From positions 1,165 to 65,164 of the forward strand of contig CAMNPT010000002.1 of the NCBI GenBank assembly GCA_946548575.1: a stretch of DNA of 64,000 nt. The letters run 5' to 3'. This document shows positions 1 through 8,601 of this stretch, piece after piece. Made by a program: the position numbers and the translations under genes. The first letter of the stretch is position 1, and each line of letters opens with the position of its first letter. Source of the DNA: an uncultured Clostridium sp. (GTDB lineage: Bacteria > Bacillota > Clostridia > TANB77 > CAG-508). The notes below the pieces were generated by a model. It was not told the DNA's origin, ran no database searches, and saw only the letters and a program-made list of their open reading frames with translations.

Positions 1-287
1 GTAAAAAAACCTTTTTCTTTTATTTCATCAGTTGAATATAATTCTACTTCTTCTCTTTTACTTAATAGTTCCTCTATAGTATAATCTAATTTAGAATCAT
101 CTGATAAGGAATAATAAATCATAATGTCTCCCAGATAAGCACACATTACGTCTATATCATTTCCCGAAAAATCTAAAAGTTTTTTCATAAAGTCTTTGTT
201 ATTTATTAATACTTGTATTTGATTTTTTTCTCTTTTTTTGCTAGTAATCATTTTATTTAATTTTGTTATGAAATATTTTATTTCCAT
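1..287 (-). CDS. hypothetical protein, N-terminal part only (gene runs off the left edge)
   Basis: Own minus-strand reading: ATG at 287-285 preceded by GAGGAA; open frame MEIKYFITKLNKMITSKKREKNQIQVL... continues to position 1. It is absent from the ORF track because no stop lies in the window. No recognisable domain. Confidence 0.4.
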   Translation of the reverse strand, partial: MEIKYFITKLNKMITSKKREKNQIQVLINNKDFMKKLLDFSGNDIDVMCAYLGDIMIYYSLSDDSKLDYTIEELLSKREEVELYSTDEIKEKGFF

Positions 288-448
288 ATTAAATCAAAAT
301 TCCTCATTTCTTAAACTCTTGTTAATTTTTTATTAACTTTCATATATCTTTTATTTTTGTTACAACAAACTACTAAGCCTTTCATATCGTATTAAATAAT
401 TGTTTTTAATATTTTATCATTTTTTTATATTTTTTTCAAGATTTTACC

Positions 449-468
449 ACTGTCACTAGACAGTGGAC
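449..468. repeat. perfect 8-bp inverted repeat CCACTGTC-ACTA-GACAGTGG (operator- or hairpin-like)
   Basis: Read directly. It sits just upstream of a TTGAAA-17-TAAAAT promoter-like sequence for the leftward gene at 1-287. Confidence 0.35.
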
Positions 469-521
469 ACTTTTTATTTTTCTTCAGTATTTTCAATGGT
501 TTTAGAGTTTCATTTTTATTC

Positions 522-576
522 TAGATACAAATTAGATACAAAAAATTTCTTCAATTTGTATCTAAATTTGTATCTA
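522..576. repeat. palindromic array of four GTATCTA motifs (TAGATACAAATTAGATACA ... TGTATCTAAATTTGTATCTA)
   Basis: Read directly: two motif copies per arm and a 16-nt AT-rich spacer. The same heptamer recurs at 786-809 and 3260-3304. Confidence 0.6.
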
Positions 577-628
577 ATTTCATTTTTCAAAATTCTTAAA
601 CATAGAAAAAAGCCCGAGAAATCGGACT

Positions 629-780
629 TTATTGATTTCTTCCATGACAATTTTTATACTTCTTACCACTTCCACATGGCTTTTAATCCTCGTGCTTTTG
701 CATAGTCATTTCTTCCGAAAACAGCCTAAATTCACCTTTTTGGTCCTAAACTTTCCATTAACTTTCTTGCTCATCCGGCG
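629..780 (-). pseudogene. decayed duplicate of the secA 3' end (SEC-C zinc-motif tail), with its own terminator at 605-628
   Basis: 642-679 matches secA 3354-3391 at 37 of 38 nt. The minus strand reads ..AVFGRND.. and, in another frame, [17 protein letters not shown]. Upstream similarity to the secA tail (GGACCAAAAA, GGAAGAAATGA) is broken by indels and stops. A hairpin GTCCGA-TTTC-TCGGGC plus T-run follows. Confidence 0.6.
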
Positions 781-785
781 CTCAG

Positions 786-809
786 GGTATCTAAAAAGGT
801 ATCTAAAAA
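786..809 (+). repeat. two tandem copies of the 12-mer GGTATCTAAAAA
   Basis: Read directly. Lies 17 nt beyond the stop of the 826-1716 gene. Confidence 0.7.
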
Positions 810-825
810 TCAGTATTATAAACCT

Positions 826-1716
826 TTATGTAACTTCAATTATATAAATTAAAAAATTTGAAAATGTTATAGAAGAGTTTACAAATAACTCTGCAATTGA
901 CTTATTAAGCTCTAATCTTTTATCCCCAACTCCATGTGAATCACTATTCTTATCTCTCATCTGTGAAATAGCAGTTAGGATTTTTTCAAATCCTGATAAT
1001 AATGTTTTTATTCTTATATCCAATTCATCATTTATATGCATCTTATATAAAACTTTAAATTGGTTATACAATGTATTAATATTTCCTTTTTCAGAAGGTT
1101 TACAATTTTTTTCTTCAATACCTTTAATTAGTATTTCTTCCAGTAATGTTCTTGATTTAGTTATTGCACTTTCATAATCTGTATTTTTTATTGCATTATA
1201 TGCTTCATTAGCAATTCTTTTTATATATGCTGAATCAACTTCTTCAATTTTGCTGGCAACCAATTCTATATTATTTTCAAAATCTACTATCGAAAACTGA
1301 TAAGATTGTAAATTATATTCAATATAACATTTGTCAAACGTCAAATATTTATTAATTGATTGGAATAAATTATTTACTATATCCCAGTACTTTTCTTGGA
1401 TTGATGAACCGAATCCATAAGTATAGCAATCATCAGCCAATTTTTCAAATCTTTTTATTTCTAATAACTCTTTAAAAAACAGATTTATTTTGTTATTCTC
1501 TATAATATAATCTAATAATCTATCCATATATTGCCATCTTGATAATTTTTCTTCATTATAGTTTTGAAGAAACCCTAATTTTTTTGAAAATTCGCATATT
1601 TGTATTCCTGACATGTATGGCATTTTCTCTTCTTCAAACATGTAACTTTGTACTGGGTTATCACCAATAAACAAATCAATTATCTTCCTATTTTTTAATA
1701 AATTCCAATTATTCAT
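826..1716 (-). CDS. Abi_C / HEPN-type abortive-infection-like protein (AbiJ-like C-terminal domain)
   Basis: 296-aa ORF. The C-terminal region carries an Rx4-6H HEPN-type motif (ISQMRDKNSDSHGVG) in a helical context, as I remember it from the Abi_C family. The N-terminal part is not recognised. Confidence 0.5.
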   Translation of the reverse strand: MNNWNLLKNRKIIDLFIGDNPVQSYMFEEEKMPYMSGIQICEFSKKLGFLQNYNEEKLSRWQYMDRLLDYIIENNKINLFFKELLEIKRFEKLADDCYTYGFGSSIQEKYWDIVNNLFQSINKYLTFDKCYIEYNLQSYQFSIVDFENNIELVASKIEEVDSAYIKRIANEAYNAIKNTDYESAITKSRTLLEEILIKGIEEKNCKPSEKGNINTLYNQFKVLYKMHINDELDIRIKTLLSGFEKILTAISQMRDKNSDSHGVGDKRLELNKSIAELFVNSSITFSNFLIYIIEVT

Positions 1717-1746: not shown

Positions 1747-3099
1747 TTAAACTCCATTTTCTTCTAATATTCTCTTAATATCTCCATAGTTGTTTACAGT
1801 ATATTCAATCTCAATTAATGGTATTTCAAGTGTTTTGGCATAATCTTTTTTTAATTTATCATGGATTTGTTGTTTTTTGAATTGTTCTTCTCCACCAAAA
1901 TATTCAACTGACTGATAATGTTGCTTTCCTTGACATTCTATTAAACAATATGGTTCATTATTTTTATACACAATAAAATCATATGATAGCTGCATTTTAC
2001 CAGTTCCAATAAGATTTTCAAACTTTTTTTGACATTCATAATCTACTGTATTTATATAATTCTTCTCTTTAAAATATCTAATAACAAATTCTTCAAGTTT
2101 AGAATATTTCCAGCATCCACATGATTGAGTTCTACCATCCATCAATGGTGCAGCATGAACAGTTACTATATTACCACAATCACATTTACACTTAAATCTT
2201 ACATAACCCCTTTTTGAATTTTCAGCTCTTTCGATAACTACAAGTTTACCAAATCTTCTGCCACTAAGATCGTTAAAATGTGTATCACTTGCAACCTGGT
2301 CTTGATAACATCCACAAGATTGTGTATGTCCACTTTTTAATCCACTCGTACTAACTATGACTTCATTTCCACAGTCACATTTACATAACCAATGTGTTTT
2401 ATTATACTTTGACTCTACTTTTTTTATAACAACAAGCTTGTTAAATCTTTTCCCAATTAAATTTTCCGAAAAGTTATTTTTTATTACTTCTTTATGTAAG
2501 CACCCACATGATTTAGTTGATCCATAAATCAGATTATTGCCTGATGTGATTTTTTCATTGCCACAATCACATTTACATTTAAATTGAGTCCATCCATTTT
2601 TATCATCTAACTGTTCAACTACCAATAGCCTTCCGAATCTTTGACCAACCAGTTTTTTTCTATATCCTTTTCTTTTAACACTATCGTATGTATGACTTCT
2701 TAATTTGCATTGCTTACCACATGATTTTGTTTTTCCTGTTGTAACATTTGATAAATAACATTCAACCTCATTTCCGCAGTCACATTTAAATAACCATCTT
2801 GTTTGGCCATTTTTATTTTCTACCTTTCTTATTCCAATCAAATTACCAAATCTTTCGCCTGTTACATCTCTCTGTAATTTTTTTCTTCCATCTGCTCTTG
2901 CACAACCACATGATGTAGTATGATTTCTTGTTAAATTTAAACCCATTACATCTACTTCATTACCACATTCACATTTGCAATGCCAAGTTAATCTACTATT
3001 TCCATTTTTTGATATATGATTTTCCGTTTGATATAAAACAGTTAATTTTCCAAATTTTTTTCCTACTAAATCAATTCTTCTTGTCACTTTAATTTTCAC
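1747..3099 (-). CDS. protein with five tandem Cys-rich zinc-ribbon modules and a C-terminal PD-(D/E)XK / DUF559-like nuclease-fold domain
   Basis: 450-aa ORF. It has five repeats of G-x-[RK]-F-[GN]-x-L-x-[VI]...W-x-C-K-C-[DE]-C-G-N...[ST]-x-S-C-G-[CK]. The tail ...LSYDFIVYKNNEPYCLIECQGKQHY...FGGEEQF...DKLKKDY... resembles Vsr/DUF559-type endonuclease folds. The true start may be GTG at 3087 (GAGGTG 9 nt upstream). Confidence 0.55.
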   Translation of the reverse strand: MKIKVTRRIDLVGKKFGKLTVLYQTENHISKNGNSRLTWHCKCECGNEVDVMGLNLTRNHTTSCGCARADGRKKLQRDVTGERFGNLIGIRKVENKNGQTRWLFKCDCGNEVECYLSNVTTGKTKSCGKQCKLRSHTYDSVKRKGYRKKLVGQRFGRLLVVEQLDDKNGWTQFKCKCDCGNEKITSGNNLIYGSTKSCGCLHKEVIKNNFSENLIGKRFNKLVVIKKVESKYNKTHWLCKCDCGNEVIVSTSGLKSGHTQSCGCYQDQVASDTHFNDLSGRRFGKLVVIERAENSKRGYVRFKCKCDCGNIVTVHAAPLMDGRTQSCGCWKYSKLEEFVIRYFKEKNYINTVDYECQKKFENLIGTGKMQLSYDFIVYKNNEPYCLIECQGKQHYQSVEYFGGEEQFKKQQIHDKLKKDYAKTLEIPLIEIEYTVNNYGDIKRILEENGV

Positions 3100-3259
3100 C
3101 TCTTTTTTTATCTCACCTGCTAATTACATCGGCAACATTATATCACAAATGTTAATATTTTGCCACTTAGGTTTGTTTTTTTAGTGACCTATGTCACTTG
3201 GACATTGGTACATAGTTGATGAAACGCTTGCAATAAAAGGCTTTTAAGTTGTAAAAATG

Positions 3260-3304
3260 TTTTTAGATACCCTCACGGAAGGTATTTAAAAAGGTATCTA
3301 AAAA
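3260..3304. repeat. three GGTATCTAAAAA-type 12-mers (one inverted, one degenerate, one exact)
   Basis: TTTTTAGATACC at 3260-3271, GGTATTTAAAAA at 3281-3292 and GGTATCTAAAAA at 3293-3304, immediately downstream of the secA terminator. Confidence 0.65.
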
Positions 3305-3313
3305 AAAATCGGT

Positions 3314-3340
3314 ATAAAAAAAGCCCTTAATTTAAGGGCT
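3314..3340 (-). terminator. rho-independent terminator of secA
   Basis: Hairpin AGCCCTTA-ATT-TAAGGGCT abuts the secA stop and is followed by a T-run on the minus strand. Confidence 0.8.
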
Positions 3341-6097
3341 TTACGCGTTTTTACCATGACAATTTTTATATTTCTTACCACTTCCACATGGACAAGGATC
3401 ATTTCTTCCTATTTTTGGTCCTTCATTTCTTACAGTTCTATCTACATCTGTTCCAATTTTAGAACCACCATCCACACTATGAATTGCCTCAAGTGCAGCA
3501 CCTGTAATTCTCACAGTCTCTTGTCTTCTAGCTTCTCCTTGTTCTCTAATATGCATTAAAATTTTTGTTACATCAAATTTGATATCGTTTATCATTTCAT
3601 CAAACATATCAAATCCCTCTAAACGAAATTCAATAACAGGATCTCTTTGAGCATATCCACGAAGACCGATTCCATTTTTTAGTTCATCCATATTATCAAT
3701 ATGCTCCATCCATTTTTCATCAACAACCTTAAGCATTACAACTCTTTCAAGTTCTCTCATTTGTTCAGAAGTTATTTCTTTCTCTTTTTCATCAAATATA
3801 TTATGAGCTTTATTTTTTAGTTCATCAGCAATTGCTATAGAATTACTAGAATTTTCTTTTATAAAGTTTTTCATATCAATTCCAAATGTATTATTTATTT
3901 CTGTATCTAAAGCTTCTATATTTAATTCTCCATTTTCTCCTTCAACATACATTTGAGGAATTGAATCTGCTACAAAATCTATCATATCCATTACACTTGA
4001 ATGAATATCTTCTCCATCTAAAACTTGTCTTCTTTGTCCATAAATAATTTCTCTTTGTGCATTCATAACATCATCATATTTTAATACATTTTTACGAGTA
4101 CTGAAGTTTCTACTTTCTACTTTCTTTTGAGCATTTTCTACTGCATTAGATATCATTCTAGAAGCTATTGGCATATCTTCATCTGCACCTAATGAATTAT
4201 ATACCTTAGTAATCATATCTCCACCAAATATTTTCATTAAGTCATCATCTAATCCAATATAAAATCTTGATTCACCAATATCTCCTTGACGTCCTGCACG
4301 TCCTCTTAACTGATTATCAATTCTTCTTGATTCATGTCTTTCTGTACCAATGATTTTTAGACCACCAGCTTCAATTACTTTCTTCTTTTCTTCTTCAATT
4401 TCTTTATCATATTTCTTAACTAAATTTCTGAATTTTTCTCTAGCATTTAAAATATCCTTATCATCAGTTTCATAATACGTATTTGCTTCTTCAATTAATT
4501 CTTGTGAAAGATTTGAATTTCTCATTTCTTCTTTTGCTAAGAATTCACTATTTCCACCAAGCATAATATCTGTACCACGTCCAGCCATGTTTGTAGCAAT
4601 TGTAACTGCACCAAATTTTCCGGCTTGTGCAACAATTTCAGCTTCTTTTTCATGATACTTAGCATTTAAAACTTCATGTTTTATACCTTCCCTTTTTAAT
4701 AACCCTGAAAGTTTTTCAGATTTTTCAATTGATACTGTACCTACCAATACAGGTTGACCTTTTTTGTTGCTTTCTTTGATACTTTCAACAATTGCTCTAT
4801 ATTTTGCATCCTCATTTTTGTATATAACATCATTTTCATCTTTACGAATCATTGGTTTATTTGTTGGTATTGCAACAACATCTAAATTGTATATTTCCTC
4901 AAATTCAGCTTCTTCTGTCATAGCAGTACCTGTCATACCAGATAATTTGTTATACATTCTGAAAAGATTTTGGAAAGTGATTGTTGCAAGTGTTTTTGAT
5001 TCATCTGCTATTTTTACTTTTTCTTTTGCTTCTATTGCTTGATGTAATCCATTATTATATCTTCTACCATACATAATACGACCTGTAAATTCATCAACAA
5101 TTAATACTTCTCCATCTTTTACTATATAATCAATATCTTTTTTCATAACACCATAAGCACGTAATGATTGATTAACATGATGAACTAAAGTTGAATTTTC
5201 TAGGTCATTAAAATTCTCTAATCCAAATGTTTCCTCTGCTTTTTTTATTCCCTTACCAGTTAATGATGCTGATTTTGCTTTTAAATCTACTATATAGTCA
5301 TAATTTTCATTATCTTCTGCTTGTTCAAAATCTTTTACATCTTCTTCTACAATTACTTTAGGTGTTAATTTTCTAACAAAACTGTCAGCTTTTTTATACA
5401 AATCTGATGATTCATTTGCTCTACCAGAAATTATCAATGGTGTACGAGCTTCATCTATCAAAATACTATCAATTTCGTCTACTATTGCATAATTTAATCC
5501 TCTTTGAACTAATTGGTCTTTATAAATTACCATATTATCTCTTAAGTAATCAAATCCAAATTCATTATTAGTTCCATAAGTAATATCACTATTATAAGCT
5601 TCTTGTTTCTCTTTAGGTTCCATTCCTGCTATAACTAGTCCTACAGAAAGACCTAAAAATTTATATAATTTACCCATCCACTCGCTATCTCTTTTAGCTA
5701 AGTAATCATTTACAGTTATTACATGAACACCTTTTCCTTCTAAGGCATTTAAGTAAACTGGTAATGTGGCAACTAATGTTTTACCTTCTCCAGTTTTCAT
5801 TTCGGCAATTCTACCTTGATGTAAAATAATACCACCTATAATTTGTACATCAAAATGTCTCATACCTAAAACTCTCTTTGAAGCTTCTCTAACAACAGCA
5901 AATGCTTCTGGTAAAATATCATCTAATGTTTTACCCTCTTCTAATTGTTTTTTAAAATAGTCTGTCTTTTCTCTTAGTTCATGATCTGTTAATTTTTCCA
6001 TTTCAGGTTCAAGGCTATTTACCTTTTCTAATAATGGTTTTACTCTTTTTACTTCTTTTTCACTATAAGATTTAAATATTTTATTTAATACACTCAT
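3341..6097 (-). CDS. secA: preprotein translocase ATPase SecA
   Basis: 918-aa ORF with motor motifs ([29 protein letters not shown]), the C-terminal SEC-C motif [14 protein letters not shown] and an AGGAAGGA RBS. Confidence 0.97.
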
Positions 6098-6936: not shown

Positions 6937-7818
6937 ATGATAGATTTACATATTCATTCAAAATATTCTTTTGATGGTTCAGATAACATAGAAACCATTT
7001 TAAAAAAAGCTGAGGAAGCTAATTTAGAAATAATATCAATTACAGATCACAATAATACAGATGCATATAATGAATTGGAAAAAATTAAAATATCTGATTA
7101 CTATTCTGGCAAAATAATTGCTGGTATAGAAATGAATACTAAAGTTGAAAATATACCTATAGAAATATTAGGTTACAATTTAGATTATAAAAAAATGAAT
7201 CAAATAGCTTATCAAAATATTCTTTCTCCTGAAGAAAGAACTAAAGTTGAATTTGAAAGGCTTGTTGATAAATGCATAAAATTCGGAATTCAATTAGATA
7301 AAAGTGAATTAAATAATTTTGACTATAGTGAATTTGCATCTGGTTTTATACATAGAAATATCAAAAAATATGAAGAAAATAAATCAAAAATTAACGAACG
7401 CTCTTGGAATTCTGCTAGAGATTTTTATAGAGATTATATGTCTAACCCATCAACTCCATTATATGTTGAAATGGATGATTTAGTACCTGATTTAGATACA
7501 GCAATAGATATGATACAACAAGCAAATGGTCTTGTTTTTATCCCACATATATATGAATACAGAGAAAATACTCCAAAAGTATTAAATAAATTATTAGAAA
7601 ATAAAAATATAAGTGGATTTGAGTGTTATTACACAACTTTCACAAATGAACAGCAAAATTATATGCTAAATTTATGTAATCAAAAAAAATATTTTATTTC
7701 CGGAGGAGCAGATTATCATGGTGCTAAAAAACCAGATGTAAAATTAGGATTTGGTTTCGGAAATTTAGAAATTCCAAGCAATATAGTAAATAGCTGGGGA
7801 AAATTTGTTTACTTTTAA
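6937..7818 (+). CDS. PHP-domain (histidinol-phosphatase-like) metal-dependent phosphoesterase
   Basis: 293-aa ORF with an AAGGAGG RBS, the N-terminal MIDLHIHSKYSFDGS PHP signature and a later ..GGADYHG.. motif. Confidence 0.75.
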   Translation: MIDLHIHSKYSFDGSDNIETILKKAEEANLEIISITDHNNTDAYNELEKIKISDYYSGKIIAGIEMNTKVENIPIEILGYNLDYKKMNQIAYQNILSPEERTKVEFERLVDKCIKFGIQLDKSELNNFDYSEFASGFIHRNIKKYEENKSKINERSWNSARDFYRDYMSNPSTPLYVEMDDLVPDLDTAIDMIQQANGLVFIPHIYEYRENTPKVLNKLLENKNISGFECYYTTFTNEQQNYMLNLCNQKKYFISGGADYHGAKKPDVKLGFGFGNLEIPSNIVNSWGKFVYF

Positions 7819-7892
7819 TATAAATTATGGTATAATATAGTTATGGAAACCGTTTTACAAGCAATTTAACTCAATGAAAGAGAGGATACATT

Positions 7893-8549
7893 ATGAAAAA
7901 GACAAATTTAAATCTCAAAAAACATTTATACATAGTAATTACTGGCTTGGACGGAGCCGGAAAAACTACGCTTATTGACGACTTAGAAAAGTTTTTTTCT
8001 AGCAAAGGTCTTAAGGTCAAAACAGCTCATTCTCCGTATGATGAGCACCTTCGATATGAAGTGCTTCCTGCTTTAGGAAATGATAGTCATGGTGACAGAC
8101 TTCTGTTTGCATTAGACAATCATATTCTTGGAGCAAAAATCCGGGAATGGCTTGTAGACTATGATATCGTAATAACACAGCGTGGTCCATTTGACAGTTT
8201 TGTTCATGGACAGGTTCAGGGTTTTACGTATGCAGAAGTCGAAAGACTTAATTGTACCAAATCCCTTCCAGCTGCAGATATCATGGTTCACCTTTGCGCT
8301 AGTGCTGAAATTGCATTTGAGCGCATTAAGAATGATCCAGACGCAGATAAATTTGAATATCTTTCCTATATCGTTGAACAGGAAAAAATGACACGTAAAG
8401 GATATTCAGATTTGGTTCTTAAAAAAGACCCTGCTCTTTCGTCATTCTTTGGAACTAGAAATCTTTTTGTGGATACGACTGATTTTACAACAAAGGATAC
8501 CTTTGATTATGTGATTCATCGTCTACTCAAAATCATTCGCGAAAAATAA
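7893..8549 (+). CDS. thymidylate-kinase-like P-loop nucleotide kinase (compositionally atypical)
   Basis: 218-aa ORF with Walker A ITGLDGAGKTTL and Tmk-like DRLLFALDNH / ITQRGPFDS motifs. G+C is visibly higher than in the neighbours, and it contains one in-frame CGG at 8142-8144. Confidence 0.6.
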   Translation: MKKTNLNLKKHLYIVITGLDGAGKTTLIDDLEKFFSSKGLKVKTAHSPYDEHLRYEVLPALGNDSHGDRLLFALDNHILGAKIREWLVDYDIVITQRGPFDSFVHGQVQGFTYAEVERLNCTKSLPAADIMVHLCASAEIAFERIKNDPDADKFEYLSYIVEQEKMTRKGYSDLVLKKDPALSSFFGTRNLFVDTTDFTTKDTFDYVIHRLLKIIREK

Positions 8550-8567
8550 GTAGTTTTTCCAAAGGGG

Positions 8568-8601
8568 GCAACATTCTTACTTAGAATGTTGCTTATTTTT
8601 T
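8568..8601. terminator. bidirectional rho-independent terminator
   Basis: Hairpin GCAACATTCT-TACTT-AGAATGTTGC followed by TTATTTTTT, between convergent genes. Confidence 0.8.

Follow-up and report, generated by a model that had tools for sequence, protein, structure and literature searches.

Nucleases of the VSR, DUF559 and DUF2726 families fall in one cluster of the PD-(D/E)xK superfamily together with the homing endonuclease I-Bth0305I (3r3p), and DUF2726 has been noted as associated with mobile elements (Steczkiewicz et al., PMC3424549). The catalytic residues are D51/H64/H69/D97 in Vsr and D196/N208/H213/D222 in I-Bth0305I (PMC3239194), and in some proteins restriction endonuclease (REase) domains of the DUF2726 type are fused to AbiJ-NTD3 (PMC3710099). 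Cis-mobilizable elements (CIMEs) and their tandem accretion at the 3' end of a target gene have also been described (PMC5704250). Here we analyze a nuclease gene in a 64,000-nucleotide (nt) stretch of contig CAMNPT010000002.1 from an uncultured Clostridium sp. (hereafter the window), where it lies beside the abortive-infection gene abiJ on a small element at the 3' end of secA. Modular nucleases with a Vsr/DUF2726 domain that resemble homing endonucleases are known already, as is the mechanism of phage attachment (att) sites, CIMEs and accretion; what is new is an abundant zinc module, outside the curated libraries queried, that forms long arrays and is joined to a Vsr/DUF2726 domain on a mini-element at a secA site. 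We regard it as probable, at roughly 0.6, that the open reading frame (ORF) encodes a functional, sequence-directed DNA endonuclease of the homing-endonuclease type, that is, a selfish nuclease of a mobile element, and not a cofactor of AbiJ.

The nuclease gene and its zinc-module array

The ORF at 1747..3099 on the minus strand is uninterrupted and comprises 450 amino acids (aa) when counted from its first GTG, as in the ORF list. That start, GTG 3099, is probably wrong and translation probably begins at the second GTG at 3087, giving 446 aa, because the Shine-Dalgarno/ribosome-binding site AAGAGGTG upstream of the second GTG overlaps the first, and because the homologues agree: the closest ones of the same size class are 440-455 aa long, mostly 443-446, and the N-termini of four homologues inspected read M-x-x-x-x-DL-x-G, with a start matching GTG 3087. 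The parts of the gene are as follows (window positions, residues in the 450-aa numbering); L080 is a contig that carries a 94%-identical orthologue.

1747..3087, minus strand: nuclease coding sequence, from the ORF list, ribosome-binding site, homologue starts and substitution rates
3137..3166, minus strand: putative promoter of a nuclease-abiJ operon (GTGGCA, 18-nt spacer, TG-extended TATAAT), kept in L080
2902..3066, minus strand: zinc module 1, aa 12-66
2707..2862, minus strand: zinc module 2, aa 80-131, slightly degenerate (first Cys replaced by Phe, last pair SCGKQC)
2500..2649, minus strand: zinc module 3, aa 151-200
2308..2457, minus strand: zinc module 4, aa 215-264
2113..2265, minus strand: zinc module 5, aa 279-329
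1750..2112, minus strand: putative DUF2726/Vsr-like PD-(D/E)xK domain, aa 330-450 (~120 aa), from invariant columns, AlphaFold2 (AF2), Foldseek and Pfam matches of homologues

The N-terminal part of the protein consists of five tandem units of ~50-55 aa with a period of 64-72 aa, each laid out as x-G-x-[RK]-F-[GN]-x-L-x-V, a variable β-hairpin, W-x-[C/F]-K-C-[DE]-C-G-N, ~15 residues and T-x-S-C-G-(x0-2)-C. Fourteen columns are invariant over the five window copies (G, F, L, K-C-x-C-G-N, T-x-S-C-G…C). Identity between copies is 40-50%, with pairwise BLASTP giving E = 8e-18 and 8e-13 at 45-50% identity, and the repeats are visible in the DNA too, at spacings of 189-213 nt (repeat families D1-D3). 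The original prediction of five tandem modules followed by a nuclease-like C-terminal domain is borne out: the modules span aa 12-329, the protein matches phrog_374 five separate times (E = 7e-84), and the motif LSYDFIVY…LIECQGKQHY…FGGEEQF…D..K..Y is present in the C-terminal domain. The array motif was found in no other ORF of the 64-kb window.

Across a set of 611 distinct modules, four Cys reach 100% conservation, in the arrangement C-x-C…C-(x1-3)-C, and a fifth is conserved at 94%; conservation extends to the scaffold residues G, F, G, L, V, W, G, N, L, G and S, and the variable positions are the hairpin tip, the residues after C-G-N and those around G-x-T. AF2 models each module as β-β-[CxC]-β-α-[CxC], with flexible linkers between them (full-length predicted local distance difference test, pLDDT, 86; predicted template-modelling score, pTM, 0.39). 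No Pfam-A or NCBIfam model covers the module. Its sole relative of solved structure by sequence is eS27, a C4 zinc-ribbon ribosomal protein, which the module profile matches weakly (E = 0.007); beyond this, searches of the PDB with the whole protein, a C-terminal profile and the module profile returned nothing. The knuckles are CxC, not of the CxxC type. Hence the conserved Cys favor the zinc modules that had been proposed, while the label 'zinc ribbon', which is based on the eS27 match together with Cys conservation, is plausible but weakly supported.

The C-terminal nuclease domain

A Foldseek search of the PDB with the full-length model gave meaningless multi-domain alignments (Src kinases, Tudor, eS4; template-modelling score, TM, < 0.1), and the C-terminal domain was therefore modelled separately. 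With 40 homologues, AF2 gave pLDDT 95.6 and pTM 0.88 and the order α-β-β-β-α-β-α; together with the alignment, this model places D374 on strand 2 and E388 where strand 3 ends. The top Foldseek matches in the PDB, BstEII, TnsA, BsaXI, McrC, Card1 and Exo5, are all PD-(D/E)xK proteins, although the matches are weak (probability up to 0.92, E ~1e-2) and none is a close structure. Matches to the predicted viral structures of BFVD were strong, with E down to 1e-10, TM up to 0.84 and a root-mean-square deviation of 1.4 Å, and include phage proteins that bear the names "Restriction enzyme", "DUF2726 domain-containing protein", "Homing endonuclease", "Group I intron-associated VSR homing endonuclease" and "Group I intron protein"; further BFVD matches are giant-virus DUF5889 proteins and a 'Treble clef zinc finger domain-containing protein'. 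Pfam DUF2726 was matched by 13 of 40 homologous domains at E <= 0.01 (best E = 1.2e-6), and DUF559, TnsA_N, PvuRts1I_N and HSDR_N were matched sporadically.

In a 55-sequence alignment of homologues, D374, E388, G391, Q393, H394, D414 and K417 are invariant, and S333, E336 and Q390 nearly so. When aligned by eye, D374…Q390…H394…D414 appears to parallel the order and spacing of the catalytic residues of Vsr and I-Bth0305I. Taken together, the data support a predicted PD-(D/E)xK-superfamily nuclease of the Vsr/DUF559/DUF2726 group. The likeness to Vsr, DUF559 and homing endonucleases that was noted earlier holds up in this sense, as AF2 and Foldseek point to the PD-(D/E)xK fold and its acidic, His and Lys residues are conserved; the catalytic D/E and K residues are present, albeit with a Gln at the usual Lys position and K417 on the next helix. 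A literature search on the function of DUF2726 found nothing specific.

The gene is under strong purifying selection, and the array is its more tightly constrained part. Against the L080 copy, the ratio of nonsynonymous to synonymous substitution rates (dN/dS) is 0.075 overall (dS ~0.4), 0.05 in the modules and 0.13 in the nuclease domain; ratios this low indicate that the gene is functional.

Abundance and partners of the module

A profile built from the five window modules matched 109,834 representatives (clustered at 50% identity) under a cutoff of E <= 1e-3, of which 47,573 remain when the cutoff is E <= 1e-10; a single protein may contain as many as 11 modules. The 141 array proteins that ranked best were sorted by regular expression and ten representative tails were scanned with Pfam. 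Array-only proteins account for 48 of the 141 and those with a DUF2726-like C-terminus for 28; other tails among the representatives are AP2, HNH_5, HNH_2, T5orf172/MUG113 (GIY-YIG-like), REase MTES_1575 and HTH_3. At the level of sequence, these matches show modular reuse, in which arrays that differ in length are joined to at least four further nuclease or DNA-binding domains.

The module is present in 479 phage genomes, where its members are labelled 'HNH endonuclease', 'homing endonuclease' or 'hypothetical', and some 'regulatory protein'. The window protein itself also matches phrog_9084 'homing endonuclease' (C-terminus, E = 7e-24) and phrog_7140 'intron encoded nuclease'. In Lactococcus phage P1048, a 440-aa protein with the architecture of the window protein is encoded immediately behind an intron-split nrdE, which also hosts an HNH homing endonuclease. 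This distribution is such as a nuclease-associated DNA-binding module would be expected to show, and the array is taken to be nucleic-acid-targeting because it is joined to several unrelated nuclease folds, like the NUMOD-type modules of homing endonucleases. The earlier suggestion of modular nucleic-acid recognition gains from these fusions to unrelated nucleases, but the modules are not hypervariable and it is we who infer that they recognize DNA.

A search with the whole ORF matched more than 7,800 proteins. Its architecture recurs in proteins of 440-760 aa that have 4-10 modules, and module number among homologues ranges from ~2 to 11, which answers the question, raised with the original prediction, of whether that number varies. 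No characterized family with this organization could be named at that time; the family is indeed uncharacterized and unnamed, but far from being unique it is very large and abundant in phages. Modules are position-specific across orthologues, and in the ~35 closest of these, identity is 56-100% (mostly 70-87%) for modules 1-4 versus 49-89% for the nuclease domain. The conservation of the modules therefore speaks against a rapidly diversifying recognition array within this subfamily.

The orthologues lie in varied contexts. One from Neobacillus (P0016) is found among integrase and resolvase genes, another (P0005) after an XRE helix-turn-helix (HTH) gene and before TnpV, and a third (P0026) after two DUF4379/NUMOD nuclease-like genes. 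On one contig (L091, 3257-8332) three consecutive zinc/NUMOD nuclease-like genes lie inside an element with a serine recombinase; they encode a DUF4379/DUF723/NUMOD protein (742 aa), a DUF4379/NUMOD protein (474 aa) and an orthologue of the window nuclease (443 aa). Orthologues of ~70% identity on two further contigs (L001, 9389-9979; L088, 6443-6973) have a 176-196-aa XRE-family HTH protein encoded 28 nt upstream, and the 11-module array protein P0121 carries a C-terminal HTH_3 fusion. The XRE neighbors and this fusion suggest a regulator-nuclease pairing in other contexts.

The nuclease-abiJ cassette of the window contains no regulator gene. A palindrome, GTGACATAGGTCAC, lies at 3184-3197 (minus strand), just upstream of the -35 box of the nuclease promoter at 3166, and its L080 equivalent, GTGACATGTGTCAC, is perfect, so that a palindrome is common to both hosts; it may be an operator.

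An att-flanked element at the 3' end of secA

The borders of the element and the features around them are listed below.

3341..6097, minus strand: secA (Pfam SecA domains), with its 3' end as the predicted attachment site
3354..3391, minus strand: att core copy 1, the putative attL core, last secA codons (CCATGTGGAAGTGGTAAGAAATATAAAAATTGTCATGG)
3320-3342: secA terminator, with R2a just after it
3249..3304, minus strand: P'-arm-like repeat R2a (TAGATACCTTTTTAAATACC and an inverted copy, GGTATCTA)
826..1716, minus strand: abiJ, HEPN abortive-infection gene (PADLOC AbiJ E = 1.7e-59, Pfam Abi_C E = 1.1e-12)
786..809, minus strand: P-arm repeat R2b (TAGATACCTTTTTAGATACC), 126 nt upstream of core copy 2
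642..679, minus strand: att core copy 2, the putative attR core, a displaced and untranslated secA 3' end with its own stop and tail and a terminator at 609-630
520..580, minus strand: palindromic TAGATACA repeat R2c, which opens a second cassette
1..286, minus strand: 5' part of the second-cassette gene (443 aa in contig L093, no family match)

A second copy of the final 38 nt of secA (3391-3354) stands at 679-642, and the likeness runs on through the stop codon and terminator. A TAGATACC-N4-TAGATACC repeat stands after core copy 1 (3300-3282, with an inverted partner) and again 126 nt before copy 2 (805-787). The nuclease gene and abiJ are the sole genes between attL and attR in this 2.7-kb element, which has no integrase. 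Two plus-strand ORFs (463..705 and 632..847) overlap the att remnant and terminator and look spurious. The island context given in the original prediction is thus made concrete by the duplicated secA core and the R2 repeats.

Two other contigs point to the origin of these borders. On a viral contig (L102, 1681-1960), R2 is separated by ~100 nt from a secA-like core that has a stop codon; beyond the core come a terminator, TTAGATAAG repeats, genes for a tyrosine integrase (Pfam E = 1.5e-25) and a CI/S24 repressor, and cro. This arrangement is the attP of a temperate phage, in which arm repeats equivalent to R2a adjoin the integrase. The right end of a 40-kb prophage-like contig (L099, 12103-12275) has a Type I restriction-modification (R-M) system, R2, 126 nt and the core. 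The R2-to-core spacing of window R2b is the same in L099, and the order of R2, spacer and core is the same in L102. Because the same core and repeats flank an integrase in L102 and end the prophage in L099, the window island is read as an element flanked by attL and attR. The secA 3' end, which encodes the C-terminal zinc motif, is the attachment site of temperate phages with a tyrosine integrase; a literature search found no paper describing a prophage site at the 3' end of secA. The nuclease gene and abiJ, by the same borders, are to be seen as cargo of the att-flanked element, and the island itself appears to be a prophage remnant or a cis-mobilizable (CIME-like) element, in tandem with the second cassette. 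That the TAGATAC repeats bind the five-module array, or mark the ends of a transposon, was also considered, and both ideas were rejected, as the same repeats flank the secA-like core beside the tyrosine integrase in the phage attP. In the two phage-type contigs (L099, 12140-12215; L102, 1720-1800) the ~100-nt spacer between arm and core is filled with short GGGC/CCCC-AAAA(G) repeats that are absent from the window spacer and could be sites for accessory factors.

The same site is occupied in other contigs. In L080-L085 an orthologous nuclease is inserted at exactly the same point of secA, where the SecA product is 41-57% identical and the nuclease 94%. Between the window and L080, DNA identity is high (~89%) from ~20 nt ahead of the core and throughout the nuclease gene. 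A co-conversion tract in secA, a signature of homing, was looked for and not found, and the identity jump ~20 nt upstream of the core falls on the conserved SecA zinc motif. L080 has three core copies and two cassettes; in its cargo (7370-10966) the gene for AbiTii stands between those for a 122-aa and a 57-aa protein, in that order, and is followed by a second cassette with products of 604 aa and 67 aa that have no family match. The L080 proteins without a family are candidate defense genes in an att-proximal hotspot. Contig L093, whose sequence is identical to that of the window, extends the second cassette (L093 8910-10560), which in the combined sequence (window 1-580 and L093) encodes a single 443-aa protein without a Pfam or PADLOC match. 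This cassette has no integrase and is closed by a TAGATACA-type repeat, TAGATACAAATTTAGATACA, at L093 10540; no third secA core lies within 200 nt after it. A metagenome scan for the element-specific terminator found the same organism only, with no empty site or new variants. Near other orthologues (60-78% identity), neither the secA core nor R2 repeats were found.

The nuclease gene and the att-proximal flank are conserved across distant hosts, and the downstream defense gene is exchangeable. In the window it is abiJ, 30 nt downstream of the nuclease gene, and the AbiJ model matches the product over its full length (residues 2-292), including the C-terminal HEPN (Abi_C) domain, so that the HEPN neighbor that had been noted is AbiJ. 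The 94%-identical orthologue (P0001, L080) is followed instead by the 122-aa protein, AbiTii and the 57-aa protein, and the orthologues examined other than the window and L080 copies have no Abi neighbor. Accordingly, a specific association between the nuclease and Abi_C, whose co-occurrence was to be surveyed, was rejected over six orthologue contexts with AbiJ, AbiTii or none. We take abiJ to be probable co-transcribed cargo and not a conserved partner of the nuclease. The att-proximal cargo position is a slot for defense genes (AbiJ, AbiTii, Type I R-M).

Function of the nuclease and alternative explanations

If the nuclease is of the homing-endonuclease type, each module would bind one Zn through C-x-C…C-x-C, and the array would read an extended DNA site, as NUMOD or zinc-finger modules do in other homing endonucleases, and would thereby position the C-terminal domain on DNA, which the latter would cut with Mg2+ through a Vsr-like D/H/D center. 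Most likely the nuclease would act for a mobile element, selfishly or in competition, by cutting a rival or empty allele, and a role as dedicated partner of AbiJ is less likely.

Several results weigh against this interpretation. The modules are highly conserved among orthologues at different loci, where distinct homing targets would predict otherwise, and neither an empty-site allele nor a co-conversion tract was found; moreover, the att structure accounts for the insertion without need of the nuclease. At 13-16.6 bits the window protein stays below the gathering threshold of DUF2726 (PF10881, 24.7), although some homologues exceed it (e.g., P0112 at 26 bits), and its C-terminal domain is best described as a divergent DUF2726 relative and not a formal member. 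Vsr and I-Bth0305I are absent from the top 50 PDB fold matches of the C-terminal model, and a C-terminal profile search of the PDB sequences, 3R3P and 1VSR included, gave no match. The canonical Lys position of (D/E)xK is occupied by Q390 (Q, D or H in relatives), and the conserved K417 is placed on the helix after strand 3; displacement of the Lys from the canonical position is a known type of variation. A literature search found no biochemically characterized member of the family. Finally, the AbiJ/AbiTii operons and the XRE HTH gene upstream of other orthologues would also fit a role in defense or as a toxin.

This last point leads to the possibility of a two-gene defense or addiction module in which the nuclease works with AbiJ as an anti-phage effector or a regulated toxin. 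In its favor are the shared operon, with the nuclease 30 nt upstream of abiJ, the orthologous locus with AbiTii, the related prophage end with a Type I R-M system (L099), which marks the att-proximal region as a site for defense cargo, the fusions of DUF2726 REase domains to AbiJ-NTD3 mentioned at the outset, and the fact that other orthologues follow an XRE-type HTH gene, as controlled nucleases and toxins often do. However, the partner varies (AbiJ, AbiTii or none), PADLOC treats AbiJ as a system by itself and has no model that the nuclease matches, genes for a methyltransferase or antitoxin are absent, and the phage members of the family occupy classic homing-endonuclease positions and carry homing-endonuclease-type domains. 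We therefore consider a defense module with AbiJ unlikely. It is quite improbable that the nuclease is instead the engine of its own mobility, cutting an unoccupied secA 3' end so that the cassette is copied in by double-strand break repair, for which the two secA cores of the donor serve as homology arms. A comparable structure is known from fungal mitochondria, where free-standing endonuclease genes carry a replacement gene end, and such a mechanism would suit the identical insertion point in two hosts with very different secA, the start of every displaced copy exactly at the G/CCATGTGG junction, the invariable place of the nuclease gene in the secA-adjoining cassette and the duplicated core, which could supply both arms. 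Nevertheless, the same core and arm repeats form the attP of an integrase-encoding phage (L102), and a prophage end without the nuclease (L099) has the same attR; because these share their structure with the window, the junctions are explained by site-specific recombination. Likewise, the second cassettes have no nuclease gene, both core copies persist in the host, which means that the core alone cannot be the cleavage target, and the 60-78%-identity orthologues with conserved modules sit away from secA.

A protein that is mainly a DNA-binding regulator or architectural factor, acting for example at the att or promoter repeats, with a vestigial nuclease domain, seems very improbable. High-scoring arrays without a catalytic domain (48 of 141), arrays that end in an HTH, phage homologues annotated 'regulatory protein' and the repeats and palindromes upstream of the gene would agree with it, but all putative catalytic residues are invariant in the 55 homologues, the nuclease domain is under purifying selection (dN/dS 0.13) and the TAGATAC repeats are accounted for as integrase arm sites. 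We thus continue to favor a selfish, mobile-element nuclease of the homing-endonuclease type.

Significance and comparison with known systems

The five-module protein with a Vsr/DUF2726-type nuclease is selectively maintained and horizontally mobile, and its module behaves as would a new nuclease-associated modular DNA-binding domain. The secA 3' end, in turn, is a phage att site where integrase-less cassettes with exchangeable defense genes accumulate. If the array reads DNA modularly, it offers natural material for studying and engineering target specificity. A bolder view, which we hold to be rather unlikely, is that the modules are a prokaryotic combinable DNA-reading unit, like C2H2 zinc fingers or transcription activator-like effector (TALE) repeats: each module would recognize a few base pairs by means of its variable β-hairpin and the positions after CGN, and arrays of 1-11 modules would set a graded target length for the attached PD-(D/E)xK, HNH or GIY-YIG-like nuclease. 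Should a recognition code be extractable from the ~110,000 natural arrays, they would provide a new natural scaffold for programmable nucleases. Even if it is not a modular reader, a module that ~110,000 representatives carry and that is mislabelled 'HNH endonuclease' in phage annotation constitutes a large annotation gap worth closing.

Among described systems, the EDxHD/Vsr-like homing endonucleases (I-Bth0305I, PDB 3R3P; PMC3239194) resemble the window protein in combining a modular N-terminal region, predicted to bind DNA in the window protein, with a small C-terminal Vsr-related nuclease. Their E…D…x…H…D pattern can be laid by eye on E336, D374, Q390, H394 and D414, and they share its phage and mobile-element habitat, a BFVD neighbor being a 'Group I intron-associated VSR homing endonuclease'. 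By contrast, the window protein has five Cys4 modules and no NUMOD2/HTH (no NUMOD match), its gene is free-standing outside any intron or intein with its own putative promoter, its domain has no significant sequence or fold match to 3R3P or 1VSR, and the extra conserved E388 and K417 put that domain nearer to DUF2726/DUF559. DUF2726 (PF10881) is the best Pfam relative of the C-terminal domain, and phage DUF2726 models superpose on it at TM ~0.8; yet the window protein remains below the gathering threshold, and DUF2726 is uninformative on function or on the zinc array.

The phage proteins of phrog_374 and phrog_559 ('HNH endonuclease') and the HNH/AP2 phage proteins contain the same repeated zinc module, but mostly as 1-3 modules with an HNH-like or AP2 C-terminus, and the label 'HNH' is wrong for the window protein. 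The DUF4379 (treble-clef zinc-ribbon repeats)/NUMOD proteins of phages and giant viruses also join tandem small modules to a DUF2726, DUF723 or T5orf172 nuclease, and such genes directly adjoin an orthologue in L091; unlike them, the window protein has no DUF4379 match, and its motif is CxC…CxC and not CxxC/H. As for the element, its att sites are of the phage type, its target is secA and its mobility is predicted from the sites alone, in which it departs from CIMEs (PMC5704250), whereas it has in common with them an attL and an attR without an integrase, a tandem cassette and a duplicated end of the target gene.

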